Assembly: GCA_040902745.1 (NCBI GenBank)
Contig: JBBDWR010000011.1
Location: 50,320-114,319, forward strand
From: Actinomycetota bacterium
GTDB taxonomy: Bacteria > Actinomycetota > UBA4738 > HRBIN12
Length of the DNA stretch: 64,000 nucleotides
Direction: 5' to 3'
Positions within the stretch are counted from its first letter, which is position 1, and each line of letters starts with the position of its first letter. This document shows positions 6,347 through 53,012 of the stretch, one piece after another. A program made the position numbers and the translations under genes. The notes under the pieces are model-generated. The model was given only the letters and a program-made list of their open reading frames with translations. It was not told the DNA's origin and did not search any database.

Positions 6347-6373
6347 GGCGCTGCCGCCGGGGACGATGAGCGA

Positions 6374-7564: not shown

Positions 7565-7674
7565 GATCGTGGGGTCCGCGCCCAGGCTAGCATCGGGTCG
7601 TCGGTAAGCAGGCGTCGGACCGATCGGGGCCCCTCCCGGGACCCCGATCCCTGGTTGCTCGTGTGCGTATCCCG

Positions 7675-11140: not shown

Positions 11141-11176
11141 ACGGCCCAGTCTACCGAGGGTGCTGAGAACGGCCGC

Positions 11177-18632: not shown

Positions 18633-19604
18633 GTGAGTCCGTTCCCGTTCGCCGATCCTGCTGCGCAGGCCGTCGGCATCGATGTCGGAGGAACGAAGAT
18701 CGCCGGATATCGGATCTCGGGAGCGGGGGAGATCCTCGCCCATGCCGAGGTCCCGTCGCCCGCCGACGATGCGGACGCCCTCGTCGCGGCCATCGTGGGG
18801 ATCGCGCGGGGGCTGGCGAGGGACGAGGTGCGATGCGTCGGAGTCGGCGCGGCGGGGATGGTCGACCACGCGGGCACGATCCGGTTCTCACCGAACCTCG
18901 CATGGCGCGAGACGGAGCTGCGCAGCCGGATCGCGGACGCCGTCGCACTTCCCACGCACGTCGACAACGACGGGAACGTCGCCGCGTGGGGGGAATTCCG
19001 CGTCGGCGCCGGCCGGGATATCGATCACATGTTGCTGGTCGCACTCGGAACGGGGATCGGGGGAGGCATCGTGATCGACGGTCGCCTGATCCGTGGCGCG
19101 CACGGATTCGCGGGGGAGGTTGGCCACGTCATCGTCGACCCGGACGGTCCCCTGTGCGGCTGTGGCAATCATGGATGCTGGGAACAGATGGCCTCCGGAA
19201 CGGCGATCCAGCGGGCAGGACGGCGAGCGGCTCGAGAGCATCCGCGCAGCCTGCTCGCCGGTCTGGGCGCCGGCGATCCCGAGGCGATCACCGGGCACGA
19301 TGTAACGCGTGCAGCGCGTGAGGGCGATGGGATCGCGCGCAGCGTTCTCGCGAAAGTCGGCCGACATCTCGGGGAAGGACTCGCGGGGTTGGTGAACATC
19401 CTCGATCCGCAACTCATCGTGATCGGTGGCGGCGCCGTCGAGTCGGGTGACCTGCTCCTTGCTCCTGCCCGAGCTGCCTTCCGCGACACGGTGGAGGCGC
19501 CGCAGCACCGGCCGCGACTACCGTCGATCGTGCCCGCGGCGCTGGGGAACGACGCGGGCGGGGTGGGCGCGGGGTTGCTGGCCCTCGAGGAGCTGGCATC
19601 GTGA
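18633..19604 (+). CDS. ROK-family glucokinase
   Basis: ROK signature: DVGGTK N-terminus and the Zn-binding motif CGCGNHGCWE. Confidence 0.85.
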   Translation: MSPFPFADPAAQAVGIDVGGTKIAGYRISGAGEILAHAEVPSPADDADALVAAIVGIARGLARDEVRCVGVGAAGMVDHAGTIRFSPNLAWRETELRSRIADAVALPTHVDNDGNVAAWGEFRVGAGRDIDHMLLVALGTGIGGGIVIDGRLIRGAHGFAGEVGHVIVDPDGPLCGCGNHGCWEQMASGTAIQRAGRRAAREHPRSLLAGLGAGDPEAITGHDVTRAAREGDGIARSVLAKVGRHLGEGLAGLVNILDPQLIVIGGGAVESGDLLLAPARAAFRDTVEAPQHRPRLPSIVPAALGNDAGGVGAGLLALEELAS

Positions 19605-20509
19605 AGCTGGGATTGCTCCTACCCTTGTTCACGGGCGATCCGGGCCGGGTGCGCGAGGCTGCCCAGCGTGCCGAGGAACTCGGGTTCGACGGCGGGTTCG
19701 GGTTCGACCATCTCTTTCCTCCATGGGCGGACGTGCAGCGCCCCTCGCTCGAGGTGTTCACCACTCTCGCCAACGTCGCCGCATCGACGTCGCGGCTCGC
19801 CCTCGGGACGTTGGTCGCTCGCGTGACGATCCGGCCGCCGGGGGTGCTCGCGAAACAGGCCGCCGCGCTCGATCAGCTCACCGATGGGCGGTTCGTGCTG
19901 GCCCTCGGAACCGGTGACGCCGAACGGGATCCCGAAGCTTCCACCTTTGGGTTCCCTTCTCCCACCGCCGCGGAACGCCGGACGCTCCTCGAGGAGACGG
20001 TGGGCGCGTGCCGAGCTCTGTTCGCGGGGGAGCAGTGGCCGGGCGGCGAACAGGTGCCGGCGATCTCGGGACCCCTCGCTCCACCCCCGGCCGGCCCCAC
20101 AGGTCCGCCGATCTGGATCGGGGGAACCTCACCCGCGGCGATCCGGATCGCAGCCAGGCTCGGTGACGCGTGGAACGGTTGGGGGCTGCACGCAGGCGGG
20201 TTCGGGGAGCGCGCGAAACGTCTCGCGAAGCAGACCGCCAGGTTCGGCCGTGTGGTCCCGCCGACATGGGCCGGACTCGCACTCGTGGGCAAGGACGAGG
20301 AGGAGCTTGCGCGGTTGCGCGCCAATCGGGACGAGCGAGGTGCGCCGGGACAGGGCGTCTGGACCGGCACGACGGACGCGTTCGCCGACGAACTCCGCTC
20401 GATCCGCGACGCAGGTGCTTCGTGGGCGATCGTGATGGCCGCCGGTCCCGCCGACCGGGTCGACGTGATCGCTGAGGCAGCTCGTCGCGCCGGCGTTCTC
20501 GGGAGGTGA
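19601..20509 (+). CDS. LLM-class (luciferase-like) F420-dependent oxidoreductase
   Basis: TIM-barrel LLM pattern (FGFDHLF...RLALGTGD...PPIWIGG). Confidence 0.75.
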   Translation: MKLGLLLPLFTGDPGRVREAAQRAEELGFDGGFGFDHLFPPWADVQRPSLEVFTTLANVAASTSRLALGTLVARVTIRPPGVLAKQAAALDQLTDGRFVLALGTGDAERDPEASTFGFPSPTAAERRTLLEETVGACRALFAGEQWPGGEQVPAISGPLAPPPAGPTGPPIWIGGTSPAAIRIAARLGDAWNGWGLHAGGFGERAKRLAKQTARFGRVVPPTWAGLALVGKDEEELARLRANRDERGAPGQGVWTGTTDAFADELRSIRDAGASWAIVMAAGPADRVDVIAEAARRAGVLGR

Positions 20510-20512
20510 GCG

Positions 20513-21118
20513 GTGGACGCGTTGTCATCGGGAGAGCTGAAGCGGCACAAGCGACGGATCCGGGAGGAGATCGTGCGACGGCGGGACGCCGTGCCGGCGC
20601 CCGATCGCGATGCGGCAGCCTTGCGGGTCACCGATCTCGTGGCGAGGATCCTGTCCGATCACAGCGCCCGCATCGTGATGGTGTTCTGGTCGTTCGGCTC
20701 TGAGCTCCCGACGGAAGGGTTGATCGAGCGGCTCGCGGATGAAGGTCGGACGGTCTGCCTGCCGCGCCTCGCGAAGGGGCAGATGCGTGCCCGGACCTAT
20801 CGTCCGGGCGATCCGGTGGTCGAGACGTCGTTCGGGGCCTACGAACCCGCGGATGGCGCGATCGTCGAGGCGGCAGACCTCGATGCCGTGCTCGTGCCGG
20901 CCGTCGCGTTCGATCGCCTGGGTTTCCGGGTCGGCTACGGGGGCGGATTCTACGACCGCTTCCTCCGGGGGGTTCGGCCCGACGCTCTTCGCATCGGAAT
21001 CGGGCTCGCGGCCCAGCGCGTCGAACAGGTCCCCCGAGGGCACTTCGACCTGCCCGTTGACCTCGTCGTTACCGAATACGGGGTCGACGATGTCGGTGGG
21101 CGGCGCTCTTCGACTTGA
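20513..21118 (+). CDS. 5-formyltetrahydrofolate cyclo-ligase (MTHFS)
   Basis: 201 aa with the C-terminal GYGGGFYDR motif typical of MTHFS. Confidence 0.8.
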   Translation: MDALSSGELKRHKRRIREEIVRRRDAVPAPDRDAAALRVTDLVARILSDHSARIVMVFWSFGSELPTEGLIERLADEGRTVCLPRLAKGQMRARTYRPGDPVVETSFGAYEPADGAIVEAADLDAVLVPAVAFDRLGFRVGYGGGFYDRFLRGVRPDALRIGIGLAAQRVEQVPRGHFDLPVDLVVTEYGVDDVGGRRSST

Positions 21119-21194
21119 ACCGCCAGTCAAATCCCTGGTAGAACCCGTGTGCATCACGTCCCCACCCACCGCTGCACGAGGAGGCCGATCCGCG

Positions 21195-22295
21195 ATGGTC
21201 GACGAGCACGAGTCCCCCTTCTACGCGATCCAAGAGTCCTTGGGCGCCACCTTCGTTCCGGAGGGTGGTTGGTTCTGGACGGATACCTTCGGCGACACCG
21301 ACGCCGAGTACAAGGCGCCGCGTGAAGGTGTCGGCATGTGGGATCTGGCTCCCTTGAACAAGTGGGAGTTCACCGGGAAGGATGCGACGGCCGCGATCCA
21401 GCGCATGAACTCCAACGACATCGTGGGGATGCGCCCGGGCAGGGTTCGCTACGGCGCGTTCCTCGATGCCGATGGCCGCATGATCGATGACGGAACCGTG
21501 TACAAGTTCAACGACGAGCGCTATTGGGTGATGACCAACGGGATGGAACGGCGCGAGTACTTCGCCGAGAACACCCAGGGTCTGGACGTGAACATCGAGT
21601 ACCGCTCGTTCGAGCTGCCGAACCTCCAGGTCCAGGGACCGCGTTCCCGGGACCTGTTGGGTTCGCTCACCGACGTCGACCTCGCAGCACTGAAATACTT
21701 CTCGTTCCTCCCCGAGCAGGTGGCGGTCGGCGGCGTTCCGGTGACGCTCTCGCGCACGGGGTTCTCCGGCGAGCTCGGGTTCGAGCTGTTCGTCGCTGCG
21801 GAGAACGCCGATGCCCTGTGGAAGGCTGTGCACGGTGCCGGAGCGCAGCCCTACGGCGTCGGCGTGATCGAGCCGATCCGCATCGAAACAGGCATGATCG
21901 TGACGGACTACGACTACGAACCGAACGCGCGAACGCCTTTCGACTTCAGCATGGACCGGCTCGTCGCGACCGACGTCGCAGGCGCCGAGTTCAACGGCAA
22001 GGCGAAACTCACGGAGATCGCGAAGAACCCGCCGAACCGGTTCAAGACGGTGAAGTGGGACGGCGACGTCACTCCAGAGTACGGCTCGGCGATCACCAAG
22101 GACGGCGAAGAGGTCGGGGTCTGCACGAGCCCCTGTCAGAGCCCGAAGTTCGGCGGCATCGGGCTGGCGATCCTTCGATCGGATGTCGCGATCGACGGCG
22201 AGAAGATCGAGGTCGCACACGAGGACGGAACGCTTCCCGCGACGATCGATGTGCTCGCGATCTACGACCCCGACAAGCGCAAGCCTCGAAGCTGA
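21195..22295 (+). CDS. GcvT-family aminomethyltransferase-like protein (THF-dependent C1 transferase/demethylase-like), paralog 1
   Basis: 366 aa from the internal ATG (MVDEHESPFY...) show glycine-cleavage T-protein family architecture. The upstream 150 codons of the track ORF are an artifact. Confidence 0.8.
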   Translation: MVDEHESPFYAIQESLGATFVPEGGWFWTDTFGDTDAEYKAPREGVGMWDLAPLNKWEFTGKDATAAIQRMNSNDIVGMRPGRVRYGAFLDADGRMIDDGTVYKFNDERYWVMTNGMERREYFAENTQGLDVNIEYRSFELPNLQVQGPRSRDLLGSLTDVDLAALKYFSFLPEQVAVGGVPVTLSRTGFSGELGFELFVAAENADALWKAVHGAGAQPYGVGVIEPIRIETGMIVTDYDYEPNARTPFDFSMDRLVATDVAGAEFNGKAKLTEIAKNPPNRFKTVKWDGDVTPEYGSAITKDGEEVGVCTSPCQSPKFGGIGLAILRSDVAIDGEKIEVAHEDGTLPATIDVLAIYDPDKRKPRS

Positions 22296-22334
22296 GCGCG
22301 TTCGTATCGGCGAGACGAACGAAGGGAAACCCAG

Positions 22335-23438
22335 ATGGCTGATCCGGTGAAGTCCCCGCTCTACGACGTGCAGGCCCAAGCCGGGGCGGAGTTCGAGGAT
22401 TTCGACGGCTTTTTGTGGACGGCACACCTCGGCGACGTGATGGGGGAGTACGAGACTGTTCGCACGGGTGCCGGTCTGTGGGATGTGTATCCGCTGGTGA
22501 AATGGGACTTCTCCGGCACCGACGCGCTTCGGGCGGCACAGCGCGTGTTCACCAATGACGTGGTGCACTTGCAGACGGGCCAAGTCCGCTACGGCGCTTT
22601 CGTCGACGACACGGGCAACATGGTGGACGACGGCACGATCTACAAGCTCACCGACGATCACTGCTGGGTCATGACTAACCTTCCCGGCTACGACGCATAC
22701 TTCGCCGGCGCGATGCAGGGGTTGGACGTGAAGATCGAGGATCGCACCTACGACATGCCGTTGATCTCGCTGCAGGGCCCCGACTCGCGGGCCGTGTTGT
22801 CGAAGGTGACCGACGCAGATCTGTCCGAGCTCCGGTACTTCCGGTTCTGGCCCGAGCGCGTTCAAGTCGCCGGTATCCCCGCGTGGGTGCTTCGCACCGG
22901 ATTCTCAGGCGAGGTCGGCTACGAGTTGATCCCCGATCGCGACCGCGCGGTCGAGCTGTGGAACGCGCTCCAAGCGGCCGGGGCGCGGCCGTTCGGTACC
23001 CACGCGATCGAGATCGCGCGCATCGAGGCGGGCCTGATCGTCGCAGGGGTCGAGTACGAGCCCGGAGTGCGCTCGCCCTATGACCTCTCGCTCGACCGGA
23101 TGGTCGCGATCGACGATCCGGCGTGCGATTTCCTGGGCAAGGACCGACTCACGCAGATCGCCGCCGACCCACCCAACCGTTTCAAGACGCTGCGCATCAA
23201 GGGCACCGCCGTGCCAGGGTACGGAACCGCGGTGATGCTGGGCGGCGAGGAGGAAGTCGGCACACTCACGAGCGCGATCGACAGCCCTCCGTTCGGCGTG
23301 ATCGGACTCGCGGTACTCCGGAGCGATCAGTCCGTCGACGGCACTCAGCTCCAGGTTGCTGTGGAGGGCGGCGCGGCCGAGGCAACGGTGGCGCCCTTGT
23401 CGATCTACGATCCGCAGAAGCGCAAGCCCCGCGGCTGA
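22335..23438 (+). CDS. GcvT-family aminomethyltransferase-like protein, paralog 2
   Basis: 367 aa, about 50% identical to paralog 1 (RYGAFVDDTGNMVDDGTIYK..., both ending IYDPDKRKPR). Confidence 0.85.
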   Translation: MADPVKSPLYDVQAQAGAEFEDFDGFLWTAHLGDVMGEYETVRTGAGLWDVYPLVKWDFSGTDALRAAQRVFTNDVVHLQTGQVRYGAFVDDTGNMVDDGTIYKLTDDHCWVMTNLPGYDAYFAGAMQGLDVKIEDRTYDMPLISLQGPDSRAVLSKVTDADLSELRYFRFWPERVQVAGIPAWVLRTGFSGEVGYELIPDRDRAVELWNALQAAGARPFGTHAIEIARIEAGLIVAGVEYEPGVRSPYDLSLDRMVAIDDPACDFLGKDRLTQIAADPPNRFKTLRIKGTAVPGYGTAVMLGGEEEVGTLTSAIDSPPFGVIGLAVLRSDQSVDGTQLQVAVEGGAAEATVAPLSIYDPQKRKPRG

Positions 23439-23489
23439 TCCGAGCGGCGGTCGTCAGGATCAGGTCGCCCGGATCCGGTGAGCGGAGCC

Positions 23490-25160
23490 TCAGAACAAGC
23501 CAACCGTGCGGCCGTCGGTGTCGATGTCGACCTTCTGGAACGCGGGGGTTCTGCCGAGCCCCGGCATCCGCTGCATGTCGCCGCAGAGCACCACCACGAA
23601 TCCCGCACCGGCACTGGGAACCACGGATCGCACCGGGAGCCAAAAGCCCCGTGGGCGGTTGAGCAGGGTCGGGTCATGCGAGAGGGACAGGTGGGTTTTG
23701 GCCATACAGACGGGGAAGGTCCCGAATCCGAGAGCGTCCATCCGCACGATGTCCTTGCGGGCCTGGGGAAGGAGATCCACGCCCTGTGCTCCGTAGAGCT
23801 GGGTTGCGATCGCCTCGATCTGCTCGGTGATCGGCGTTCCGTTCGGCGTGAGGTGCGAGAAGGTGTTCGGCTGTTCGCACGCCTCGACGACCGCGTTCGC
23901 GAGGGTCACCGCACCGTCTCCGCCGTCGGCGAATCCCTCGTTGACGACGACGGTCTGTGCTCCGGCGGCGGTTGCGAGCCGTTCGATCAGTTCGATCTCC
24001 GCGGGCGTGTCGGTCGGGAACCGGTTGATCGACACCACGCACGGGAGTCCATAGCGCTTCACGATCTCGATGTGGGCGGTCAGGTTGTCCATGCCGTCGC
24101 GCAGCGCGTTCAGATCCTCCGTGCCGAGGTCTTCGAAGCGCTTGCCACCGTGAGACTTCGTGGCGCGCACCGTCGTCACCAGCACCGCGGCGCTCGGCGC
24201 GAATCCGCCGACTCGGCACACGATGTCGCAGAACTTCTGGAACCCGAGATCTGATGCGAAGCCCGCCTCCGTGACCACGTAGTCCGCGAGCTTGAGGGCG
24301 ATGCGATCCTCGATGATGGAGTTGTTCGCGTGGGCGATGTTGCCGAACGGGCCGGCGTGTAGCAGCACGGGCTGGTGTTCAAGCGTCTGCACGAGGTTGG
24401 GCTTTATCGCGTCCTTCATGACCACGGTCATCGCCCCGGCGGCCTGAAGATCCTCCGCGGTGACCGGCTTGCCGTCGCGCGTCTCGGCGACCACGATCCT
24501 GCCGAGTCGGTCCCGCAGATCCCGCAGATCGTTCGCGAGGGCGAGGATCGCCATGATCTCCGATGCCGCAGTGATCACGAAGGAGTTTTCGCGGGGAACC
24601 CCGTGCGTCTTGCCCCCGAGACCGACGACCGTGTTACGCAGCTCGCGGTCGTTCATGTCCATCGCGCGCGGCCAAGTGATCGTTGCCGGATCGATGTCGA
24701 GCAGGTTGCCGTGGTACAGCGACGCGTCGAGGGCCGCGGCAAGGAGATTGTGTGCGGCCGTGACCGCGTGGAAGTCCCCGTTGAAGTGGAGATTGATCTC
24801 CTCCATCGGGACCACCTGTGCGAATCCACCGCCGGTGCCACCGCCTTTGATTCCGAAGACGGGGCCCATGCTCGGCTCGCGCAGGCAGAGCATCACGTCC
24901 TTGCCGATCTTCCCGAGGCCCTGAGTGAGCGATACGGACGTGGTCGTCTTGCCTTCTCCGGCCTTCGTAGGGGTGATCGCCGTCGTGATGACGAGTTTGC
25001 CGTCGGGGCGGTCGGCCAGGCGTTCGAGCGCGGAGAGTTGGATCTTGGCCCTGGAGGCGCCGTAGGGCTCGACCTCGTCGGGGAGCAGTCCCGCTTCCCG
25101 GGCAACGTCGGTGATGGGGCGAAGCTCCGCCTCCTGCGCGATCTCCAGTCCGCTCTTCAT
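23490..25160 (-). CDS. fhs: Formate-tetrahydrofolate ligase (10-formyl-THF synthetase)
   Basis: 556 aa from MKSGLEIAQ with the FTHFS signatures PTKAGEGKTTT and the GGGFAQVVPM region. The upstream 62 codons of the track ORF are an artifact. Confidence 0.9.
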   Translation of the reverse strand: MKSGLEIAQEAELRPITDVAREAGLLPDEVEPYGASRAKIQLSALERLADRPDGKLVITTAITPTKAGEGKTTTSVSLTQGLGKIGKDVMLCLREPSMGPVFGIKGGGTGGGFAQVVPMEEINLHFNGDFHAVTAAHNLLAAALDASLYHGNLLDIDPATITWPRAMDMNDRELRNTVVGLGGKTHGVPRENSFVITAASEIMAILALANDLRDLRDRLGRIVVAETRDGKPVTAEDLQAAGAMTVVMKDAIKPNLVQTLEHQPVLLHAGPFGNIAHANNSIIEDRIALKLADYVVTEAGFASDLGFQKFCDIVCRVGGFAPSAAVLVTTVRATKSHGGKRFEDLGTEDLNALRDGMDNLTAHIEIVKRYGLPCVVSINRFPTDTPAEIELIERLATAAGAQTVVVNEGFADGGDGAVTLANAVVEACEQPNTFSHLTPNGTPITEQIEAIATQLYGAQGVDLLPQARKDIVRMDALGFGTFPVCMAKTHLSLSHDPTLLNRPRGFWLPVRSVVPSAGAGFVVVLCGDMQRMPGLGRTPAFQKVDIDTDGRTVGLF

Positions 25161-25323
25161 GCTTGGCGGTCCCCTTCGTCTGAATGGCCGTTCAACTGGT
25201 TCGGACGATACAACCCTGGCGGAATGGCTCCAAACGTGACACCCGTGAGAACGACCGTGGGTCAGGCCGCCGCGCAGGCAGGGGCGGGCGCGGCCTGCGG
25301 CCGGGGTAGACCCCGAGCGGCGT

Positions 25324-26205
25324 ATGGACCCTCGCGGTTGCCGCACCTACCCTGGAGAGATGGCCGCCACCGAACCGCTGCGCAGGAACGTTGCACGCAC
25401 CAAGATCGTCGCCGTCAACGCAGGCGTGCGGTCGGAGCGGCCCGACACGCTCGCGGCCGAAGAGCCGATGGAGATCCGCGCGGGCGGTCCCGGCCAGGAC
25501 ACCGGTTCGGTTGCCGTCACGATGCGCACGCCCGGTGGCGATTTCGAACTCGCCGTCGGGTTCCTGTTCACCGAGGGCCTGATCCGCGGGCGCGACGAGA
25601 TCGATCGGGTCGCATATTGCGACGACGTCGGACCGGACGAACAGCGCTACAACATCGTGACCGTTCGGCTCGCCCATGCCTTCGACACCGAGTCGGTCCG
25701 CAGGAACTTCTACGCCTCGTCGAGTTGCGGTGTCTGTGGCAAGGCATCGATCGACGACATCCAGGTGCGCTGCGCTCCGGTCGCACCGGGACCGCAGGTC
25801 GAGGGCTCGATCATCGCCGGACTCCCCGATGCGCTCCGCCGGGCACAGCCGGTGTTCGACAAGACCGGTGGCTTGCATGCTGCGGGGTTGTTCGGCGTCG
25901 ACGGCGGCCTGATCAGTCTGCGCGAGGATGTCGGGCGGCACAACGCGGTCGACAAGGTCATCGGTGAGCAGCTGCTGGCCGGCACGGTACCGCTGGCCGA
26001 GCGCATCCTTCAGGTTTCGGGTCGAGTCAGCTTCGAGATCGTGCAGAAGGCCGCGGTTGCCGGGATCCCGGTGATCTCGGCGGTGAGTGCGCCGTCGAGC
26101 CTGGCGGTCGAGGCCGCCGAGGGCTTCGGCATGACCGTCGTTGGCTTCGTGCGCGACGATCGGTTCAATGTCTACTCTCACCCCGAACGCATCGGGACCA
26201 CCTGA
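25324..26205 (+). CDS. fdhD: Formate dehydrogenase accessory sulfurtransferase FdhD
   Basis: FdhD family (SSCGVCGK active-site Cys motif, GRHNAVDK). The alternative start ATG at 25360 has an adjacent GGAGAG. Confidence 0.8.
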   Translation: MDPRGCRTYPGEMAATEPLRRNVARTKIVAVNAGVRSERPDTLAAEEPMEIRAGGPGQDTGSVAVTMRTPGGDFELAVGFLFTEGLIRGRDEIDRVAYCDDVGPDEQRYNIVTVRLAHAFDTESVRRNFYASSSCGVCGKASIDDIQVRCAPVAPGPQVEGSIIAGLPDALRRAQPVFDKTGGLHAAGLFGVDGGLISLREDVGRHNAVDKVIGEQLLAGTVPLAERILQVSGRVSFEIVQKAAVAGIPVISAVSAPSSLAVEAAEGFGMTVVGFVRDDRFNVYSHPERIGTT

Positions 26206-26350
26206 GGTCTCTGGGCGGTCATACGGTCGACCCCCGCCCGGCGGGGTGCGACCAAGGGTCATGGCCGAGGTCCGGATCCCATTTGAACGGGGGTTTAGAA
26301 TCGTGGAGCAACCGGCCGATGCCGGTTGGACATCTCGGAAAGGAGCGCCG

Positions 26351-28282
26351 ATGCCGAACGGGCTCGCGCGACTCACGGAGCCGATGGTTCGCGAGAACGG
26401 CGAGCTGCGCGTCGTCCCCTGGGAGGTGGCCCTGGACCGGGCCGCCGAGGGGCTGCGCGCGGCGACCGATGCGAACGGCGGGGACGGAGTCGGCCTGTTC
26501 AGCTGCTCGAAGGCCACCAACGAGATGAACTTCGTTGCTCAGAAGTTCATCCGCCAGGCCCTTCGCAGCAACAACATCGATAGCTGTAACCGCACCTGAC
26601 ACGCACCTTCGGTCGTCGGTCTGGCGACCGTGTTCGGGGCAGGTGGTGGCACAAGTTCATACGAGGAGGTCGAACACACGGACCTCGTGATCCTCTGGGG
26701 ATCGAATGCGCGAGAGACGCACCCGATCTTCTTCCATCACGTCCTCGCCGGGATCCACAACGGTGCGCGGCTGTTCGCCGTGGATCCTCGGCGCACCTCC
26801 TCGGCCGAATGGGCCGATCTCTGGCTGGGGATCGACGTCGGTACCGACGTCGCGTTGTCGAACACGATGGCGAGGGAGATCATCGCGAGCGACTTGCACG
26901 ACAAGACGTTCATCTCGCGGGCGACCAGCGGGTTCGCCGCGTACGAGAAGAGCGTCGAGGACTGGACGCTCGACCGAGGGGCGGCCGTTACCGGCGTCCC
27001 GGCGGAGGTGATCCGGGAGGCCGCCCACGCGTACGCACGCGCGGACCGCGCGATGATCTGCTGGACGCTCGGGATCACCGAGCACCACAACGCGGTCGAC
27101 AACGTGCTCGCGTTGATCAACCTCGGCCTGCTGACCGGTCACGTCGGCACCTACGGCAGCGGACTCAATCCGCTTCGCGGACAGAACAACGTTCAGGGCG
27201 GTGGAGACATGGGCGCGATCCCGAACAAGCTCCCCGGGTTCCAGGACCTCGAGCGAGATCCGGCCGCGCGCGAGCGGTTCGAGCGCGCGTGGGGGGTTCC
27301 GATCGCTCCGAAGTATGGCTGGCACCTGACGCAGATGTTCGAGGCGATGGAGCGTGGCGAACTGACGGCTGTTTACGTGATCGGGGAGAATCCCGCGAGT
27401 TCAGAGGCCGACATGCATCGGGCCCGCAAGCTGCTGTCCAACCTCGACACCCTGATCGTGCAAGACATCTTCATGACGAAGACGGCGGAGATGGCTGATG
27501 TGGTGCTGCCCGCCTCAGCCTCGTGGGCCGAGACCGAGGGGACGGTGACCAACTCAGAGCGCCGGGTGCAGCGTGTTCGCAAGGCGCTCGACCCTCCCGG
27601 GAACGCACGCGACGACGTCTGGATCATCAACCAGCTCGCGAACCGGCTCGGACTGAGCTGGGGTGAGGTGACGCCGCATGCCGCGTGGGACGAACTCCGC
27701 ACCCTGAGCCCGATGCACGGCGGGATGAGCTGGAAGCGGCTCGAGGAGGAGGGCGGGCTCCAGTGGCCCTGCCCGGACGAAGAGCATCCCGGGACCCTCT
27801 TCCTGCACGAACGGCTCTGGGAGGAGGATCCCGCTGCGCGAGGCGAGCCCGCACCGTTCAGCATCACGATCGACTCCGCGCCCGTCGACGAGCTGACAGA
27901 TGAGTATCCGCTGCGGCTGACGACGGGACGGCGCCTGACCGACTACAACACGGGCGTGCAGACGGGTGGATTCTCCTCACCCCTGCGTCGGCAGGAGTCC
28001 GTCGACATCTCGCCCGAGGATGCGCGAGACCTCGGTGTGGCCGAGGGGGAGATCGTTCGCGTGACCTCTCGGCGGGGGACGGTCGACGCGCCGATCCGGA
28101 TCGACACGGTCCTGCGGCCGGGGCTGATCTTCATGACGTTCCACTTCCCCGAAGAGGTGGAGACGAACAAGCTCACCATCGACGCCACCGATCCCAAGTC
28201 CGGAACCGCCGAGTTCAAGGCGGCGGCGGTGCGGATCGACAAGTTGCCGGACGTGGTTGCCGCCGGCGGGGGCGGATCGTAG
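26351..28282 (+). CDS. fdhA: Formate dehydrogenase Mo-bisPGD catalytic subunit; probable selenocysteine at an in-frame TGA (26597-26599); lacks the N-terminal Fe4S4 domain
   Basis: The ATG is preceded by the RBS GGAAAGGAG. The translation across the TGA reads CNRT-U-HAPSVVGL, which aligns with E. coli FdhF CARV-U-HGPSVAGL. The downstream frame continues as molybdopterin oxidoreductase domains to 28282. The ORF track splits this gene into 26141..26599 and 26630..28282. Confidence 0.8.
26597..26599 (+). other. In-frame UGA, predicted selenocysteine codon
   Basis: Its position corresponds to the Sec/Cys active-site residue of FDH-alpha. Confidence 0.65.
26610..26630 (+). other. SECIS-like hairpin (CGGUCG-UCGGUCUGG-CGACCG)
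   Basis: A 6-bp stem with a 9-nt loop containing GGUC starts 11 nt after the UGA. This is the usual place for a bacterial SECIS. Confidence 0.45.
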
Positions 28283-28301
28283 TGCCCGAGCGGCAGGGGG
28301 C

Positions 28302-30236
28302 GTGTTGGACCTCCAGCTGACCGACGCGCGCGCCACCGTGGAGGAGCGCGCGGCAGTCGACGCGCTGCTCGGACCGCCCGAAACGCCGTGGGACGGCGGC
28401 GAGCGCGATGCGTACGGCGTCCGTGTTTCTCGAACCGGCCGCGAAGCGAGGGAACAACGCCACCTCCTGCTCCCCGCTCTGCACGCCGTGCAGGATCGGA
28501 TCGGGTGGATCAGCGAAGGCGCGTTGAACTACGTCTCGATCCGGCTGACCGTTCCTCCCGCCGAGACGTTCGGAGTCGCCAGCTTCTACGCGCTGTTCGC
28601 TCTGCAGGAGCGCCCGCCGACCGTGGTCCACATCTGCGACGACATCGCCTGTGGATCTTCGGGAGCGGAGCGTCTCTGCGGAGAGATGGAGCGGCTGATC
28701 GGTCCCGCAGGCACACCCACCACCGACGGGGGCACGACCTGGCAGCGCAGCCCGTGTCTCGGCCTATGCGAGCAGGCCCCCGCCGCGCTGGTGCAGCGAG
28801 CGGGGATCGGCGTGACCGACCGGTCGATCGGCTGCGCGCGCGCCGAGGACGTCGTTGCGGCGATCACGTCCCGAGCCGACGAGATCGGCCTCGGTGCCGA
28901 CGTCGCGACGATCGCGCCGCAGACCGCAGACGAGAGCAGGTCCGAACTTCGGCTGCTGCGCCGGGTGGGTGTCGTCGACCCCGGATCCCTCGACAGCTAC
29001 CGAGCCGAAGGAGGGTACGAAGCCCTTCGGATGGCGGTCGAGATGGGCCCGGGCGGCGTCATCCGAGAGCTCAAGGACGCGAGGCTGATGGGCCGCGGCG
29101 GGGCTGCGTTCCCGACGGGGGTCAAGTGGGAGGCCGTGGCGTCGCAGGCGAGTCGCCCGCACTACTTCATCTGCAACGCGGACGAGTCCGAGCCCGGAAC
29201 CTTCAAGGACCGTGTCCTGATGGAGCACGATCCGTTCGCATTGATCGAGTCGCTCACGATCGCCGGATACACCACGGCGTCGGAGCACGGGTCGATCTAC
29301 ATCCGAGGGGAGTATCCGCTCGCCCAGGCGCGACTGCGCCATGCGATCGATGAAGCACGTGAACGCGGGTATCTCGGTGACGACGTGATGGGGGAAGGGT
29401 TCACCTTCGACATCGAGGTGCGCCGCGGAGCCGGCGCCTACATCTGCGGCGAGGAAACGGCATTGCTGAACTCGATCGAAGGCAAGCGCGGCGAACCTCG
29501 AAGCAAGCCACCGTTCCCGGTTTCCCGCGGCCTGTTCGGCAAGCCCACAGGGATCAACAACGTCGAGACGCTCGTCAACGTACTGGAGATCCTCCGGATC
29601 GGAGGCCCGGCATACGCGCAGATCGGCACAGAAGGATCCACCGGCCCGCGGCTGTTCTGCCTGTCGGGCACGGTGGAACGACCCGGACTGTACGAGGTCC
29701 CGTTCGGTGCCACGCTCCGCGACCTGATCGAGCTCGCCGGCGGGGTGTCCGGCGGGCGGCCACTGAAGGCGGTTCTGCTGGGCGGTGCTGCCGGAGCGTT
29801 CGTCCGTCCGCAGGACCTGGATCTGAAGCTGACGTTCGAAGACACTCGGGCGGCGGGGGTCACCCTGGGGTCGGGCGTCGTGATGGCGTTCGACGACACG
29901 GTGTCGCTCCCGGAGGTGCTGCTGCGGATCGCGGCGTTCTTCCGCGACGAATCCTGCGGGCAATGTGTACCGTGCCGTGTGGGAACGGTGCGCCAGGAGG
30001 AGGCGCTCCAACGGATCGTCCGCGGCGCCCAGATCGGCTCGCGGGACGAGGAGCTCGCGCTTCTGGGCGAGATCGCGCAGGTGATGCGCGACGCCTCGAT
30101 CTGCGGGCTCGGTCAGACAGCAGCAAACGCGGTGGTCTCGGCGATCGAGCAGCTCGGTGTGTTCGAAGGCGCGGACACGTCGAACGGGAGTCAGGATCGC
30201 TCCGTCCCCACTCGTACCGAAGAACAGGAGTCCTAG
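28302..30236 (+). CDS. NAD(H)-binding formate dehydrogenase diaphorase subunit, NuoE-like/NuoF-like fusion (FdsG-FdsB)
   Basis: The N-terminus is a thioredoxin-like 2Fe-2S domain (CDDIACGSSG...C). It is followed by NuoF motifs (GRGGAAFPTG FMN site, GAGAYICGEETAL NADH site, ESCGQCVPCR 4Fe-4S). The GTG at 28302 follows AGGGGG. The alternative TTG at 28257 overlaps the previous gene. Confidence 0.85.
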   Translation: MLDLQLTDARATVEERAAVDALLGPPETPWDGGERDAYGVRVSRTGREAREQRHLLLPALHAVQDRIGWISEGALNYVSIRLTVPPAETFGVASFYALFALQERPPTVVHICDDIACGSSGAERLCGEMERLIGPAGTPTTDGGTTWQRSPCLGLCEQAPAALVQRAGIGVTDRSIGCARAEDVVAAITSRADEIGLGADVATIAPQTADESRSELRLLRRVGVVDPGSLDSYRAEGGYEALRMAVEMGPGGVIRELKDARLMGRGGAAFPTGVKWEAVASQASRPHYFICNADESEPGTFKDRVLMEHDPFALIESLTIAGYTTASEHGSIYIRGEYPLAQARLRHAIDEARERGYLGDDVMGEGFTFDIEVRRGAGAYICGEETALLNSIEGKRGEPRSKPPFPVSRGLFGKPTGINNVETLVNVLEILRIGGPAYAQIGTEGSTGPRLFCLSGTVERPGLYEVPFGATLRDLIELAGGVSGGRPLKAVLLGGAAGAFVRPQDLDLKLTFEDTRAAGVTLGSGVVMAFDDTVSLPEVLLRIAAFFRDESCGQCVPCRVGTVRQEEALQRIVRGAQIGSRDEELALLGEIAQVMRDASICGLGQTAANAVVSAIEQLGVFEGADTSNGSQDRSVPTRTEEQES

Positions 30237-30239
30237 ACG

Positions 30240-31286
30240 ATGTCCAGGGTGATGCTGGCTCCGCCCAAGCGACTGATCGACATCGAGGTCGACGGTGCGA
30301 CGGTCCGCGTGCCCGAGGGCTCCACGCTGCTGGATGCGCTGCGCACCGAGGGGGTGGACACGCCCACGCTGTGTTACCTCGAGAACCTGACACCGGTGAA
30401 TGCGTGTCGCGTATGTGTTGTCGAGGTGGAGGGTGCTCGCACCCTGGTCCCTTCGTGCGCCCGCCAGGCTGAGGCGGGGATGAAGGTTCGAACCGATTCC
30501 GAGCGCGTGCGGACGAGCCGCAGGATGGTCTTCGAGTTTCTGGCCTCCAGCGTGGACCTCTCCCTCGCGGGGGAACAGGTCCAGGGGTGGATGTCCGCCT
30601 ACGGCGTGGAGCCGGACCGCTACGGCCCGAGCGCCGAGCCGGCTCCGCTGGGCGAACGCGAGGCCCGCATCCCCGGGCACCACCACGGGTCCGAGGGGGA
30701 AGCGGCCGAGACCGTCGCACAGCCGATCAAGGTGGACAACGATCTGTACGTCCGGGAGTACTCGCGGTGCATCCTCTGCTACAAGTGCGTCGAGGCGTGC
30801 GGTGTCGACGCACAGAACACGTTCGCGATCGCGGTCGCCGGCCGGGGCTTCGATGCGCGGATCTCCACCGAGTTCGACGTCACGCTGCCCGACTCCGCGT
30901 GTGTGTACTGCGGCAATTGCATCGGCGTCTGCCCCACTGGAGCCCTGATGTTCAAGTCCGAGTACGACATGCGCGAAGCCGGCACCTGGGACGAGCAGGA
31001 ACAGACCGTGACCGAGACGATCTGCCCGTATTGCGGCGTCGGCTGTGATCTGTCGCTGCACGTCCAGGACAACGAGATCGTCAAGGTCACGAGCCCGCTC
31101 GACAACTCGGTCACACACGGGCATCTGTGCATCAAGGGCAGGTTCGGGTTCCAGTTCGTGCAGAACAGAGGCCCCAAGGACGCCGACGCCGGCGCCCGCG
31201 GAGTCGGACTCGTGGAGGGCCCCGCCGATCGGATCGCGCGTCAAGCCGGTACCGGAGACGACGCCCCGGAGACGACGCGAAGGTGA
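30240..31286 (+). CDS. Fe-S subunit corresponding to the N-terminal (NuoG-like) part of FDH-alpha: 2Fe-2S, two 4Fe-4S ferredoxin clusters and a molybdopterin-oxidoreductase Fe4S4 domain
   Basis: Cys motifs CYLENLTPVNACRVC, CILCYKCVEACG, CVYCGNCIGVCP and CPYCGVGCDLSLH. Confidence 0.85.
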   Translation: MSRVMLAPPKRLIDIEVDGATVRVPEGSTLLDALRTEGVDTPTLCYLENLTPVNACRVCVVEVEGARTLVPSCARQAEAGMKVRTDSERVRTSRRMVFEFLASSVDLSLAGEQVQGWMSAYGVEPDRYGPSAEPAPLGEREARIPGHHHGSEGEAAETVAQPIKVDNDLYVREYSRCILCYKCVEACGVDAQNTFAIAVAGRGFDARISTEFDVTLPDSACVYCGNCIGVCPTGALMFKSEYDMREAGTWDEQEQTVTETICPYCGVGCDLSLHVQDNEIVKVTSPLDNSVTHGHLCIKGRFGFQFVQNRGPKDADAGARGVGLVEGPADRIARQAGTGDDAPETTRR

Positions 31287-31324
31287 TCCGATGGAGGTTC
31301 TCGCCGCGCTGATCGCAACGATCG

Positions 31325-31921
31325 ATGCCTCCAGTCCTTGACACCACCGGGGTGGTTCTGGCCGGCGGACGATCCACCCGCTTCGGCTCCGACAAGCTCG
31401 TGGCGACCTACCGAGGGATGCCGTTGCTTCACCACGCCGTCCTTCGCCTGATCGAGGTGTGCTCCGAGGTCGTGGTAGTGCTCGCTCCGGAAGGTGCGGA
31501 CCCGACGCTCCCGCCCGGGATCCCCGCGCGGTTCGCGCGCGACGCGACCGAGGGCCAGGGACCGTTGGCCGGGGTGCTTGCCGGACTGCAAGCGACGACG
31601 ACGGATGTGGCACTGGTCGTCGGCGGGGACATGCCCGAGATCTCGACTCCGGTTGTGTTGGAGATGCTCGAGGTCGCGGCGCAGTCGTCCGTTGATGCGG
31701 TCGTCCTCGGCGACGGGGACACGTTCCGCCCGCTTCCGGTGCTGGTACGCGCTGATCGAGGGCGTGAGGTCGCCCACGCGCTACTCCACGACGAGGAACG
31801 CCGGTTGCGAGCCTTCGTCCAAGCACTGCGCGTCGCCGTGATCGACGCGGAGACGTGGCGGCTTCTGGACCCTGCGGGGGCGACCCTGCGCGACATCGAC
31901 ACCCCCGGTGACCTCGGGTGA
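31325..31921 (+). CDS. mobA: Molybdenum cofactor guanylyltransferase MobA
   Basis: LAGGRSTRFG N-terminal NTP-transferase motif and about 198 aa. It is located directly after the FDH genes. Confidence 0.75.
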   Translation: MPPVLDTTGVVLAGGRSTRFGSDKLVATYRGMPLLHHAVLRLIEVCSEVVVVLAPEGADPTLPPGIPARFARDATEGQGPLAGVLAGLQATTTDVALVVGGDMPEISTPVVLEMLEVAAQSSVDAVVLGDGDTFRPLPVLVRADRGREVAHALLHDEERRLRAFVQALRVAVIDAETWRLLDPAGATLRDIDTPGDLG

Positions 31922-31964
31922 GCGTCGGCTATCCTCGGACCCTTCCCCGATCCCTGGAGGCCTG

Positions 31965-32915
31965 ATGGAGCGCGTTGTGGTGGCCCTCGGCGGCAACGCC
32001 TTGCTCCGACGGGGCGCGGATGACACCTTCGAGGAGCTGTACCGGTCCGCGCGTGGCGCTGCGGAGAAGGTCGCCGACATCGCGGCCTCCGGTTGGGAGG
32101 TCGTGCTCACCCACGGTAACGGACCACAGGTGGGTCGGATACTCATGCAGCAAGAGGCAGCGCGCGGCTGGGTGCACCCGATGCCGCTGGACGTCTGCGG
32201 CGCCGAGAGCCAGGGGCAGATCGGCTACCTGCTCCAGGTCACGATCGGCGACGTGTTCTTCGAACGCGGTATGCAGCGTCCGGTTGTCACGATCCTCACG
32301 CTCACCCGCGTTCCTCCCGACGATCCCGCCTTCGAAGATCCGACCAAGCCGGTCGGCCCGTTCTTCGAGGAGGAGGAGGCGCAACGCCTCGCGGACGAGC
32401 AGGGGTGGACCGTTAAGCCTGACAGCCACGGCGGATGGAGGCGCGTCGTTCCCTCGCCCGTGCCGTATTCGATCGTGGAGACCCCGGTGATCGCGAACCT
32501 CGTCGGGGACGGTGCGATCGTCATCGCGGCGGGAGGAGGAGGGGTTCCGGTGATCGAGCAGGGGCCCAGGCTGATCGGCGTCGAGGGCGTTGTGGACAAG
32601 GACCTCGCGGGCGCGATCCTCGCATCCGAGGTGGACGCGTCGACGTTGTTGATCCTCACGGACGTGAAGTCCGTACAGACCGGGTTCGGGACCGACCACG
32701 CCGAAGAGGTCCACGGGCTCTCCTTGGACGAGGCGCGCCACCTGCTGGGCGAAGGGGAGTTCGGGGCGGGATCGATGGGACCCAAGGTCCGCGCCGCGGT
32801 GAACTTCGTGGAGGGCGGGAGTCGGCGCACCGCGGTCATCGCCGACCTGGAGGACGCGTTGGCGGCGCTCACCGGTGGTGCCGGAACCACGATCGGCCGG
32901 TCGGTCCCGACGTAG
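31965..32915 (+). CDS. arcC: Carbamate kinase
   Basis: Strong ArcC pattern (VVALGGNAL...THGNGPQVG...AAGGGGVPV). Internal ATG of the track ORF. Confidence 0.85.
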   Translation: MERVVVALGGNALLRRGADDTFEELYRSARGAAEKVADIAASGWEVVLTHGNGPQVGRILMQQEAARGWVHPMPLDVCGAESQGQIGYLLQVTIGDVFFERGMQRPVVTILTLTRVPPDDPAFEDPTKPVGPFFEEEEAQRLADEQGWTVKPDSHGGWRRVVPSPVPYSIVETPVIANLVGDGAIVIAAGGGGVPVIEQGPRLIGVEGVVDKDLAGAILASEVDASTLLILTDVKSVQTGFGTDHAEEVHGLSLDEARHLLGEGEFGAGSMGPKVRAAVNFVEGGSRRTAVIADLEDALAALTGGAGTTIGRSVPT

Positions 32916-32924
32916 GGTTTCGCC

Positions 32925-33590
32925 GTGCGGCTGGTCGTCTACAACCTCAAGGGCTTCCGGCTCGGTCGAGAGCCGATCGCGCAGGTGCTGGACGAACTGC
33001 GTCCGGACCTTGCCCTGCTCCAGGAGACGGGCCCCAGGAGGCAGCTCCGGGCCCTCGCCGGGCAGCTGGGGATGCGGGTCGCAGCCGATCCGTGGGCCTT
33101 CCCGCGTCGGAGGGTCAAGAACGCGGTGCTCGTGCGCCCGCCGCTCGAGCTGCTCGGCCAGCGGTTGCACCGATTCCCCGGTACCGAGCGCCTGCATCCA
33201 CGCGGGGTGATGGTCGCCGAGGTACGCGCAGGAAGGCGCGAGCTCTGGACGCTCTCGGCCCATCTCGGCCTGGTTCCGCGGGAACGAACGAAGCACGCGA
33301 GATTGCTCGCGGGTCTCGCCTCGGCGCTCGATGGTCCCGTCGTGCTGGGAGCGGACCTCAACGAGCTGCCCGGGCGGACGACACCGGCGGTGATCGAAAG
33401 GTCGTTGCGTGACGCGTGGTCGTTGGTTGGGGTCGGTGGCGGCGAGACGTTCCCGTCCGATGGACCCTCTACGCGGATCGACTACCTGTTCGTGTCCGTG
33501 GGGGTGGAGATGGCCGGGATACGCGTCGGGAGCGAGGCGGGGATGGCATCGGATCACCTGCCGGTGATCGCGGAGGTCGAGATCGCCTGA
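32925..33590 (+). CDS. Endonuclease/exonuclease/phosphatase (EEP) family protein
   Basis: 221 aa ending with the SDH catalytic motif typical of EEP enzymes. Confidence 0.65.
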   Translation: MRLVVYNLKGFRLGREPIAQVLDELRPDLALLQETGPRRQLRALAGQLGMRVAADPWAFPRRRVKNAVLVRPPLELLGQRLHRFPGTERLHPRGVMVAEVRAGRRELWTLSAHLGLVPRERTKHARLLAGLASALDGPVVLGADLNELPGRTTPAVIERSLRDAWSLVGVGGGETFPSDGPSTRIDYLFVSVGVEMAGIRVGSEAGMASDHLPVIAEVEIA

Positions 33591-33749: not shown

Positions 33750-33789
33750 CGGGCGGAGATGCTACCGCACGCGGCATAAGATGGAGCTC

Positions 33790-34818
33790 ATGCGACTGGG
33801 GCTCCTGACGGGTGGCGGCGACTGCCCCGGATTGAACGCCGTGATCCGCGCCGTCGTTCGCGACGGCGCCGGCCGCCGCGGCGCCGAGATCGTGGCCTTC
33901 CGAGACGGCTGGCATGGCGTCCTCGAGAACCGATCGGAGGAGCTCGTCGTGGGCTCCGTTCGCGGCATCATCCATCGGGGCGGCACGATCATCGGCTCCT
34001 CCGGGACCAATCCGTTCAACCACGAGCGGGGAGAGGAGCGGATCGCAGAGACCTTCGCCGCCCAGCGGCTGGACGGACTGATCGCAGTCGGCGGAGAAGG
34101 AACGTTGACCGCGGCATCCCGGCTCGCGGATCGCGGCCTCAAGATCGTCGGCGTTCCCAAGACGATCGACAACGATCTGTCCGCGAACGACTTCACGATC
34201 GGCTTCCATACCGCCGTAGGGACGGCGACCGATGCGATCGACCGGCTCCACAGCACGGCGGAGAGCCACAACCGCGTGATGGTAGTGGAGGTGATGGGGC
34301 GCAACGCGGGGTGGATCGCGATGTACTCGGGGATTGCCGGTGGCGCGGACGCTGTCCTGATCCCGGAGCGGTCCTTCGACCTGGACGAGATCTGTGCACG
34401 TCTGCGCAAGCGCCACCTGCAGCGCTCCTCGTTTTCGATCGTAGTCGTGGCGGAGGGAGCGACGCCGATCGAGGGGTCGATGAACCTTCCCTCTTACGAG
34501 CTCGACGAGAACGGGTTCGAACGGCTGGGAGGGATCTCGACCCTCCTCGGGCCCGAGCTCCAAGCGCGGACCGGTTTCGAGACGCGCGTCACGATCCTGG
34601 GACACACGCAACGCGGCGGCTCGCCGGTGCCGTTCGACCGGGTCTTGGGGACCCGGCTCGGGATCGCCGCAGTGGGTCTCGCCGAGGCGGGCGGTTGGGG
34701 ACGCATGGCGGCGTTGCAGGGTGGGGAGATCGTCGACGTGGCCCTGGCCGACGCGGTCGCCGAGCGCAAGGTGGTTCCCGATCCGCTGATCGCCACGAGC
34801 GAGGTCTTCTGCAGTTGA
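33790..34818 (+). CDS. pfkA: 6-phosphofructokinase
   Basis: MRLGLLTGGGDCPGLNAVIR N-terminus and the GGEGTL, PKTIDND and MGR motifs. Confidence 0.9.
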   Translation: MRLGLLTGGGDCPGLNAVIRAVVRDGAGRRGAEIVAFRDGWHGVLENRSEELVVGSVRGIIHRGGTIIGSSGTNPFNHERGEERIAETFAAQRLDGLIAVGGEGTLTAASRLADRGLKIVGVPKTIDNDLSANDFTIGFHTAVGTATDAIDRLHSTAESHNRVMVVEVMGRNAGWIAMYSGIAGGADAVLIPERSFDLDEICARLRKRHLQRSSFSIVVVAEGATPIEGSMNLPSYELDENGFERLGGISTLLGPELQARTGFETRVTILGHTQRGGSPVPFDRVLGTRLGIAAVGLAEAGGWGRMAALQGGEIVDVALADAVAERKVVPDPLIATSEVFCS

Positions 34819-34839: not shown

Positions 34840-35909
34840 GTGCGCTCCTACCGCGTGGATCTGCGCTCGGATACGGTCACCCGCCCCTCCGACGAGATGC
34901 GTCGGGCGATGGCGGGCGCCGAGGTGGGCGACGCGTGGTACGGCGACGACCCCAGCGTGAACCGACTGCAGGACCGCGCGGCCGAGGTCGTCGGCACCGA
35001 GGCCGCGCTCTACGTGCCGACCGGAACGATGGCCAACCAGATCGCGTTGCGTCTGCACGCTCGGGGCTCGGGTCATCTCGTGGCGTGCGAACGACGCGCG
35101 CATGTCGCATCGACGGAGGTCGCCAGCTCCGCGGTGCTGTCCGGGATCGCGTACCGACGTCTGGACGGCGTCGATCGAGGACACCTGACCGCCGAGTCGG
35201 TCACCGAGGGACTGGAGCCCGACACCTATTTCGACGTCGAGGTCGTGGATCTGGTCGCGATCGAGAACACCGCCGGATACGCGGGCGGGACGTGCATGCG
35301 GTTGCGGGAACTGGAGGCGATCCGGCGCGTCGCACGGTCCCGCGGTATCCCGGTTCACCTCGACGGCGCTCGGCTGTTCAATGCGACGGCGGCGACCGAT
35401 ACCGACCCCGCTGACTACGGGCGCCAGGTGGACACCCTCATGTTCTGCACGTCCAAGGGACTCGGCGGTCCGATCGGCTCCCTGCTGTGCGGCCCGGTGG
35501 AGCTGATGCCCGAGGCCCGGCGGGTGCAGATCCTGTTCGGTGGAGCCTGGCGTCAGGCCGGAGCATGGCGGCGGCGGGACTCGTTGCCCTCGAGAACGGC
35601 CCGAAGCGCCTCCACGAGGACCATGAGCGGGCAAAGCGACTCGCCGCAGGTGTTTCCGACGTGCTCGAGGGATCGCTCGACGCGGCCGCGGTCGAGACGA
35701 ACATGGTGTTCGTCGACGTCCGGGCCACGAAACTCGACACGGGAACCGTGATCGAGCGGCTCCGCGACGCAGGTGTGGGGGCCACCCCGACCGATCGCGG
35801 GGACGTTCGCATGGTCACCCACGCGGACGTCGACGACGACGGCATCGACGTGGCCCTGGAGGCCTGGAGGGAGATCGCCCCATCTGGGTCGGGAAGGAGC
35901 GAGGCGTAG
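34840..35909 (+). pseudogene. ltaE: Low-specificity threonine aldolase, interrupted by a 1-nt frameshift near 35563-35564
   Basis: Track ORF 34840..35751 carries homology up to ...ILFGGAWRQAG. Homology continues in the +1 frame from ATG 35565 (MAAAGLVALENG...) to 35909. Only 2 nt separate the two frames. Confidence 0.6.
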
Positions 35910-48866: not shown

Positions 48867-48940
48867 GGCTTCAGGGTGACCGAACCGAACCCAGCGTGGC
48901 AACTGCAGCGAGGCAGCTCCGGAGGTCCTAGGCTCTCGCC

Positions 48941-52919: not shown

Positions 52920-53012
52920 TGAGCGCTCGCACTCGACCCCGCGCGAATGTGTTGCATACGTTCGCACCCGACGTGGCCGTCGCACCGACGACGCACGCCG
53001 GAGGAGCGACCG

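Follow-up and report, generated by a model that had tools for sequence, protein, structure and literature searches.

How should a TGA codon in the middle of an otherwise open formate dehydrogenase gene be read? The question is raised by positions 26351-28282 of the stretch of DNA analysed here, 64,000 nucleotides (nt) from an uncultured Actinomycetota bacterium (NCBI GenBank assembly GCA_040902745.1, contig JBBDWR010000011.1, positions 50,320 to 114,319 of the forward strand), which we call the window. Selenocysteine (Sec) formate dehydrogenases are textbook selenoproteins, as are the selenocysteine insertion sequence (SECIS) elements within their open reading frames (ORFs). Among bacterial selenoproteins FdhA has the widest distribution (PMC1794560), and selenocysteine formate dehydrogenases have been documented in Actinobacteria (PMC13449736). 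The position of the codon in the active site, its conservation among relatives and the hairpin that follows it lead us to conclude, with high confidence, that the gene encodes one selenoprotein of 643 codons in which residue 83 is selenocysteine.

Positions 26351-28282 of the plus strand read as one gene of 643 codons with a single internal stop. The frame opens with an ATG at 26351, preceded at a distance of 5 nt by a Shine-Dalgarno sequence, AAGGAG, at 26340-26345, and closes with a TAG at 28280-28282. The sole stop in between is the TGA at 26597-26599. The first-pass annotation of the window had placed the ORFs called at 26141-26599 and 26630-28282 in the same frame and had translated through the TGA. 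Our reading of the sequence agrees on both counts, and the translation across the site runs ...NNIDSCNRT*HAPSVVGLATVFG... (the asterisk is the TGA).

The product appears to be alpha, the catalytic molybdenum- or tungsten-bis-pterin subunit of a formate dehydrogenase. Only two Pfam domains were found on it, PF00384 (residues 7-432, E = 4.5e-70) and PF01568 (residues 521-625, E = 2.9e-28). The NCBIfam Fdh-alpha profile TIGR01591 matched over profile positions 52-672 with 637.6 bits, which is under its equivalog cutoff of 666.25. The best PDB matches were all formate dehydrogenases. Residues 6-637 align to residues 62-713 of T. kivui FdhF (7qv7_S, E = 1e-149), residues 7-638 to E. coli FDH-H (1aa6_A, E = 9.5e-136) and residues 7-629 to residues 308-931 of R. 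capsulatus FdsA (6tg9_A); archaeal FdhA (7bkb_D) and M. extorquens Fdh1A are further relatives of known structure. These alignments uphold the original proposal that the TGA lies at the selenocysteine site of formate dehydrogenases. Residue 83 falls in the catalytic cysteine/selenocysteine column of the solved enzymes (CARLCHAP in 7qv7_S, CARICHGP in 7bkb_D), and CNRT[C]HAPSVVGL of the query stands opposite CARLCHAPTVAGL in 7qv7_S and CARICHGPSVAGL in 7bkb_D. The conserved histidine (H84, directly after residue 83) and the conserved arginine (R276, in NPLRGQNNVQG) are both aligned and identical. Residue 83 is thus at the position of the metal ligand, and the TGA would encode a selenocysteine that binds molybdenum or tungsten.

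Scanning one genome per species gave 80 related loci at 66-79% amino-acid identity, the closest of them, at 79%, in a metagenome-assembled genome (MAG). Most of the relatives are MAGs, many from soil surveys. The titles of the Actinomycetota MAGs name Gaiellales, Thermoleophilia, Solirubrobacterales, Acidimicrobiia and Streptosporangiaceae. Titles from outside the Actinomycetota include Acidobacteriota (Vicinamibacteria among them), Gemmatimonadota, Chloroflexota and Dormiibacterota; by label, the loci represent at least six phyla. TGA stands at the aligned codon in all 80 loci, and also in a closer, syntenic metagenome contig (L082). In each of the 80, at least 82 in-frame codons are open upstream of the TGA. 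Over these 82 codons, 69 loci give an ungapped alignment with the window; their upstream part averages 64% amino-acid identity, and differences are most frequent at third codon positions (2356, against 1405 at first and 1295 at second positions). In 38 of these 69 loci an ATG precedes the TGA by exactly 82 codons, and in most of the 25 loci printed a GGAG-like purine run lies no more than 20 nt before that ATG. This pattern of substitution indicates that the upstream 82 codons are coding and are conserved as protein.

Downstream of the TGA, positions 26610-26630 of the plus strand form a candidate SECIS hairpin. Folded with ViennaRNA, it has a stem of 8 bp (26610-26617 with 26623-26630) and a 5-nt loop, GGUCU (26618-26622). 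The stem starts 10 nt past the UGA, and the loop occupies nucleotides 19-23 past the last base of the UGA. A hairpin had been reported here in the first-pass annotation, and its existence and its start at the 11th base past the TGA both stand. Its shape does not: the reported stem of 6 bp with a loop of 9 nt is the same hairpin minus two inner pairs.

We compared the hairpin across 81 sequences, which align without gaps. The six core pairs (26612-26617 with 26623-26628) are paired in all 81. One of these pairs is C-G in 62 sequences and G-C in 19, with no C-C or G-G intermediate, and the swap uses the synonymous third positions of one valine and one alanine codon. Mapped on a neighbour-joining tree of the downstream protein, it requires at least eight independent C-G/G-C changes. 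Another core pair is U.G in 70 sequences, C-G in 9 and U-A in 2. The loop GGUCU is invariant (81/81), and the third positions of the codons GTC, GGT and CTG never vary; the third positions just beyond the stem take all four bases. GGT is the rarest glycine codon in the window, at 15%, yet it is fixed in the loop. None of 500 column shuffles matched the observed covariation score, and sliding the 3' partners by up to three columns lowered pairing from 93% to 16-81%. The core pairing, the compensatory changes and the frozen synonymous sites support the view that the hairpin behaves as a selected RNA element.

Two further loci serve as natural controls. The only cysteine-type homologue found among the close relatives is protein P0002 (72% identity), encoded at 6001-7941 of locus L081, which has the same operon and a TGC at the site. 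There the hairpin has degenerated: of the six core pairs, two no longer form, and a U-to-C change has altered the loop (GGC CTC GAC). The second control, L082, is syntenic with the window and about 84% identical to it in DNA; its gene at 10001-11935 shares the TGA, and the hairpin there is identical. We considered its protein, P0001, as a full-length cysteine form and rejected it, since the L082 DNA has TGA and single-base insertions or deletions flanking the site shift the called frame. Several other genes are broken in L082, including fragmented genes for formate-tetrahydrofolate ligase (FTHFS) and FdhD. The breaks are likely assembly errors, as is typical of an error-prone assembly.

Several results weigh against a selenocysteine codon served by a SECIS element. 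Folded by itself, the 64-nt segment that follows the TGA does no better than its shuffled versions (z = -0.42; 67 of 200 shuffles were equal or better). Since a single-sequence fold is at chance level in this window of 67% G+C, the hairpin alone proves nothing, and its significance comes only from the relatives. A search of the whole window against Rfam returned no family at its gathering score. In a 261-nt search, Rfam SECIS_3 (RF01989) reached 18.3 bits, far short of its gathering score of 63, and some of these bits come from conserved coding sequence. The match is full-length (model positions 1-59), keeps the register with the UGA and shares the nested stems. A permissive Rfam search of positions 23000-33000 returned nothing at E <= 1. 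By Rfam's criterion the element is outside SECIS_3, and no Rfam family captures it. The cysteine-type control is a single homologue, L081. Lastly, neither tRNA-Sec nor selA, selB or selD was found within the 64-kb window by ARAGORN, Pfam or tblastn. ARAGORN detected no tRNA of any kind there, Pfam scans of about 40 window ORFs gave no SelA, SelB or SelD, and tblastn with these three proteins from relatives gave no match in the window.

Among the relatives, sel genes, tRNA-Sec or both lie within 10 kb of the operon in seven of the 80 loci (L058, L059, L060, L069, L071, L072 and L077). Five of these (L058, L059, L060, L071 and L072) have tRNA-Sec beside selA, selB and selD, and L069 and L077 show selD near the operon. 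The sel regions lie upstream of the operon, at 755-4019 in L058, 4064-7335 in L059, 385-4558 in L060 and 6197-9574 in L072; in L059, moeA and fdhD stand between the sel genes and the formate dehydrogenase operon. The titles of the sel-linked loci are Chloroflexota, plus one Streptosporangiaceae. As a side observation, the window encodes a class-V aminotransferase at 47613-49010 on the minus strand, of a family that includes cysteine desulfurases and selenocysteine lyases.

The failure to find selenocysteine machinery within the window would also fit read-through without selenocysteine, in which a near-cognate tRNA inserts tryptophan, cysteine or arginine, or TGA has been reassigned. TGA is the normal stop of 23 of the 35 confidently identified window genes and is therefore not reassigned. 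Simple leaky read-through gives no role to a conserved hairpin with a GGUC-type loop, and selB, selA, tRNA-Sec and selD stand beside the same operon in relatives. Furthermore, formate oxidation is selenium-dependent in the homologous system of Actinomycetospora chiangmaiensis (PMC7176365). We consider this explanation very improbable, although it fares slightly better than the two that follow.

Gene callers treat the TGA as a true stop, and the prediction that they would truncate this gene was correct. A protein search yielded thousands of relatives, the closest match being 82% identical, and we examined lengths for the best 120. In this set, 118 are only 542-560 amino acids (aa) long and cover just 84-86% of the query. 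If such calls were right, the locus would have two products, an 82-residue peptide and a 550-residue protein starting at the GTG that is indeed present at 26630. The 550-residue form, however, would have neither the metal ligand nor His84, and would lack the first ~95 residues of the pterin domain (FdhF 62-160). No Shine-Dalgarno sequence precedes 26630. The apparent starts of the truncated calls vary between homologues: the four that we inspected of the 118 begin directly past the TGA, at VVGLATVFG, MVGLATVFG or VFGAGGG. Moreover, the two parts keep their frame relation at exactly one codon in all 80 loci. Two separate products are accordingly a scarcely credible account of this locus.

Equally improbable, and effectively refuted, is a pseudogene or sequencing error in which one base turned a TGC or TGT cysteine codon into TGA: TGC and TGA are one base apart, a TGC homologue exists (P0002 in L081) and frameshifted draft copies occur (P0001 in L082), but L082 and 80 independent species-level genomes all share the TGA at this codon, both flanks are conserved as protein with mostly third-position differences, the hairpin is selected at synonymous sites, and random nonsense would have to hit the same one codon of 643 in every lineage. 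All three rivals are left with very little probability because the TGA is universal among the 80 loci, the hairpin shows selection, catalytic residues would be lost from a truncated product and TGA is a normal stop in the window.

The first-pass annotation had missed a further feature of this enzyme: the iron-sulfur N-terminus of FdhF and FdsA is absent from alpha and is encoded separately downstream. Alpha begins at about residue 62 of FdhF and residue 308 of FdsA, and so is without every Fe-S domain of those enzymes; Pfam did not find PF04879 (Molybdop_Fe4S4) on the polypeptide. The counterpart is gamma, a predicted Fe-S protein of 348 aa encoded at 30240-31286 (plus strand) and equivalent to the FdsA N-terminus. 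Its domains are PF13510 (Fer2_4, [2Fe-2S]) at residues 11-87, PF12838/PF22117 (4Fe-4S) at 173-236 and PF04879 (Molybdop_Fe4S4, here C-terminal) at 256-309, and its translation carries the cysteine motif CPYCGVGC...C. Residues 13-310 of gamma align to FdsA 25-306, and residues 260-309 match positions 1-50 of the TIGR01591 profile. Since this profile is divided between gamma (positions 1-50) and alpha (positions 52-672), the usual alpha subunit is divided here precisely where its Fe4S4 domain meets the pterin part. Its halves stand in swapped order with a diaphorase gene between them. With the Fe4S4 function predicted to be supplied in trans by gamma, alpha is a split variant.

The diaphorase gene, beta, lies at 28302-30236 on the plus strand and encodes a NuoE-NuoF fusion with a [2Fe-2S] cluster, a flavin mononucleotide (FMN)/NAD(H) site and a [4Fe-4S] cluster (Pfam PF01257, PF01512, PF10531 and PF10589; NCBIfam nuoF and nuoE). 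Its PDB matches include the formate dehydrogenase beta subunits 6vw7_B, 7e5z_B and 6tg9_B. Translation of beta may start at a GTG (28302) or at one of two TTG codons (28305 or 28257), and the length is about 644 aa. The order alpha-beta-gamma, including the split and the swap, is kept in every related locus that reaches far enough. Two putative cofactor genes flank the three, both on the plus strand. Upstream, at 25324-26205, is fdhD (Pfam PF02634; NCBIfam NF001943, 315 bits against a cutoff of 269), for the accessory sulfurtransferase of formate dehydrogenase cofactor maturation. Downstream, at 31325-31921, is a mobA-like gene for a molybdenum cofactor guanylyltransferase (Pfam PF12804; best NCBIfam match TIGR02665, 94 bits, under the cutoff of 152), whose position is kept in the closest relatives. 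The 145-nt spacer between fdhD and alpha (26206-26350) has no Rfam match, and a molybdenum cofactor riboswitch, which we had considered for it, was dropped on that ground. Our best reading is of a cytoplasmic formate dehydrogenase that depends on molybdenum or tungsten and is probably NAD(P)-linked.

We propose the following mechanism. Translation would begin at the ATG at 26351, and the hairpin past the UGA would recruit SelB with guanosine triphosphate and Sec-tRNA(Sec). Residue 83, in the context ...SCNRT-U-HAPSVVGLATVFGAGGGTSSYEEVEHTDLVILWGSNAR, would in this way become a selenocysteine, a metal ligand beside His84, and reading would continue to 28282. Three polypeptides would make up the enzyme: alpha with the pterin domains and Sec83, gamma as the Fe-S wire and beta as the NuoE-NuoF subunit for FMN and NAD(H). 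Electrons would pass from formate to the molybdenum- or tungsten-selenocysteine center, through the [4Fe-4S] and [2Fe-2S] clusters of gamma to the FMN of beta, and on to NAD(P)+. The domains make this path likely, and by the NuoF-type FMN/NADH domain NAD+ would be the acceptor. FdhD and the MobA-like protein, encoded on either side, would mature the cofactor, the latter by making its guanine dinucleotide form. The reading frame, the domains, the split point, the conserved TGA and the conserved, covarying hairpin are observed in the sequences; that selenocysteine is inserted and SelB binds, which metal and acceptor are used and in which direction catalysis runs are inferences.

Parts of this system resemble well-known enzymes. 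E. coli FdhF (FDH-H) likewise has selenocysteine at the homologous active-site position, followed by histidine, and a hairpin within the ORF directly after the UGA. The E. coli fdhF SECIS has a GGUC apical loop, with the same Gly-Leu codons (GGU CUG) and the same spacing from the UGA as the window hairpin. The window stem differs from it in having no bulged U and in its loop of 5 nt. The N-terminal [4Fe-4S] domain, which is part of the E. coli FdhF polypeptide itself, is carried by another protein in the window; and where E. coli FdhF acts within the formate-hydrogen lyase complex, the window subunit has NuoE/NuoF-like partners.

In its chain of cofactors and its set of domains, the window enzyme agrees with FdsABG (Rhodobacter capsulatus, 6tg9/6tga; Cupriavidus necator, 6vw7) and with Methylorubrum extorquens Fdh1AB (7e5z, 7vw6). 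FdsA residues 25-306 correspond to gamma of the window and 308-931 to alpha; FdsB matches beta, and FdsG corresponds to the NuoE-like part. Fdh1B of M. extorquens is likewise a NuoE-NuoF fusion (PDB match; PMC7176365). FdsABG-type enzymes and Fdh1AB differ from the window in using cysteine (PMC7176365) and in having an unsplit alpha of about 960-990 aa. The gene order of the window, alpha(Mo)-beta-gamma(FeS) with a split alpha, also sets it apart from the FdsABG type.

The closest described counterpart is FDH3 of Actinomycetospora chiangmaiensis DSM 45062 (Rohwerder et al. 2020). Its FdhA3 has 640 aa, with U80 and the pterin part only; FdhB3 has 614 aa and is a NuoE/NuoF fusion; FdhC3, of 316 aa, is an Fe-S protein in its own right with homology to the FdsA N-terminus (PMC7176365). 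The sequences of this system have the accessions WP_084681743.1, WP_018332443.1 and WP_018332444.1. All three subunits were seen in the proteome, in which the table of formate dehydrogenase proteins also lists FdhD, and formate removal needed selenium (PMC7176365). The window has the same set in another actinobacterial host (alpha of 643 aa with U83, a NuoE-NuoF beta of about 644 aa and an Fe-S gamma of 348 aa), a likeness drawn from the published subunit descriptions. On those descriptions the predicted operon matches FDH3 subunit for subunit, and this type of enzyme is already known from a cultured actinobacterium. None of the best 80 loci in the genome scan came from Actinomycetospora. The two systems differ in that the window comes from an uncultured Actinomycetota lineage and in their neighbours, which in the window are folate and one-carbon (C1) genes (FTHFS, two GcvT-like genes and 5-formyltetrahydrofolate cyclo-ligase, MTHFS) and not the 2-hydroxyisobutyric acid (2-HIBA) pathway.

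FTHFS is encoded on the minus strand at 23490-25346 (Pfam PF01268, E = 5e-246), as a divergent neighbour of fdhD; we regard it as context and not as part of the enzyme. It adjoins the formate dehydrogenase genes in 19 of the 80 related loci, usually in the order FTHFS-fdhD-FDH, as well as in L081 and, in fragments, in L082; many of the closest relatives share this linkage. The folate/C1 neighbourhood upstream of the operon spans 18633-25346. In it lie MTHFS (20513-21118) and two GcvT-like aminomethyltransferases (20739-22295 and 22335-23438), and it also includes a ROK kinase and an F420-type luciferase-like oxidoreductase.

Further observations concern other parts of the window. The only other read-through candidate in a scan of the window, a TGA at 34816-34818, was rejected because it looks like the ordinary stop of the phosphofructokinase gene at 33781-34818. 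That TGA is in frame with the next gene, a beta-eliminating lyase at 34840-35751, and third-position G+C is high on both sides of it. The ORFs at 46727-47518 (minus strand), 52947-53603 (plus) and 36648-37838 (plus) have a coding-like codon bias, with marginal Pfam matches or none.

What the finding means differs in scale. Knowledge on selenoprotein formate dehydrogenases is unchanged by it. In annotation, a single selenoprotein of 643 codons should take the place of the 550-aa fragment, and the same correction is due for many 5'-truncated database entries, as 118 of the 120 best homologues illustrate. The relatives also provide an unusually clean comparative case of a bacterial SECIS: its synonymous sites are frozen, compensatory swaps recur, and the cysteine form shows decay. 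The position of the operon beside FTHFS, two GcvT-like genes and MTHFS allows a more speculative and, in our estimate, rather unlikely reading: a selenium-dependent entry of formate or CO2 into folate-bound C1 metabolism, similar to the reductive glycine pathway, in abundant uncultured soil Actinomycetota, rather than simply a formate-oxidising detoxification. If this were true, the near-identical SECIS across at least six labelled phyla would mark a laterally spread module that requires selenium. For the biology of this lineage and its relatives in several phyla, the finding implies that they would need selenium, and the machinery to insert selenocysteine, for formate oxidation.

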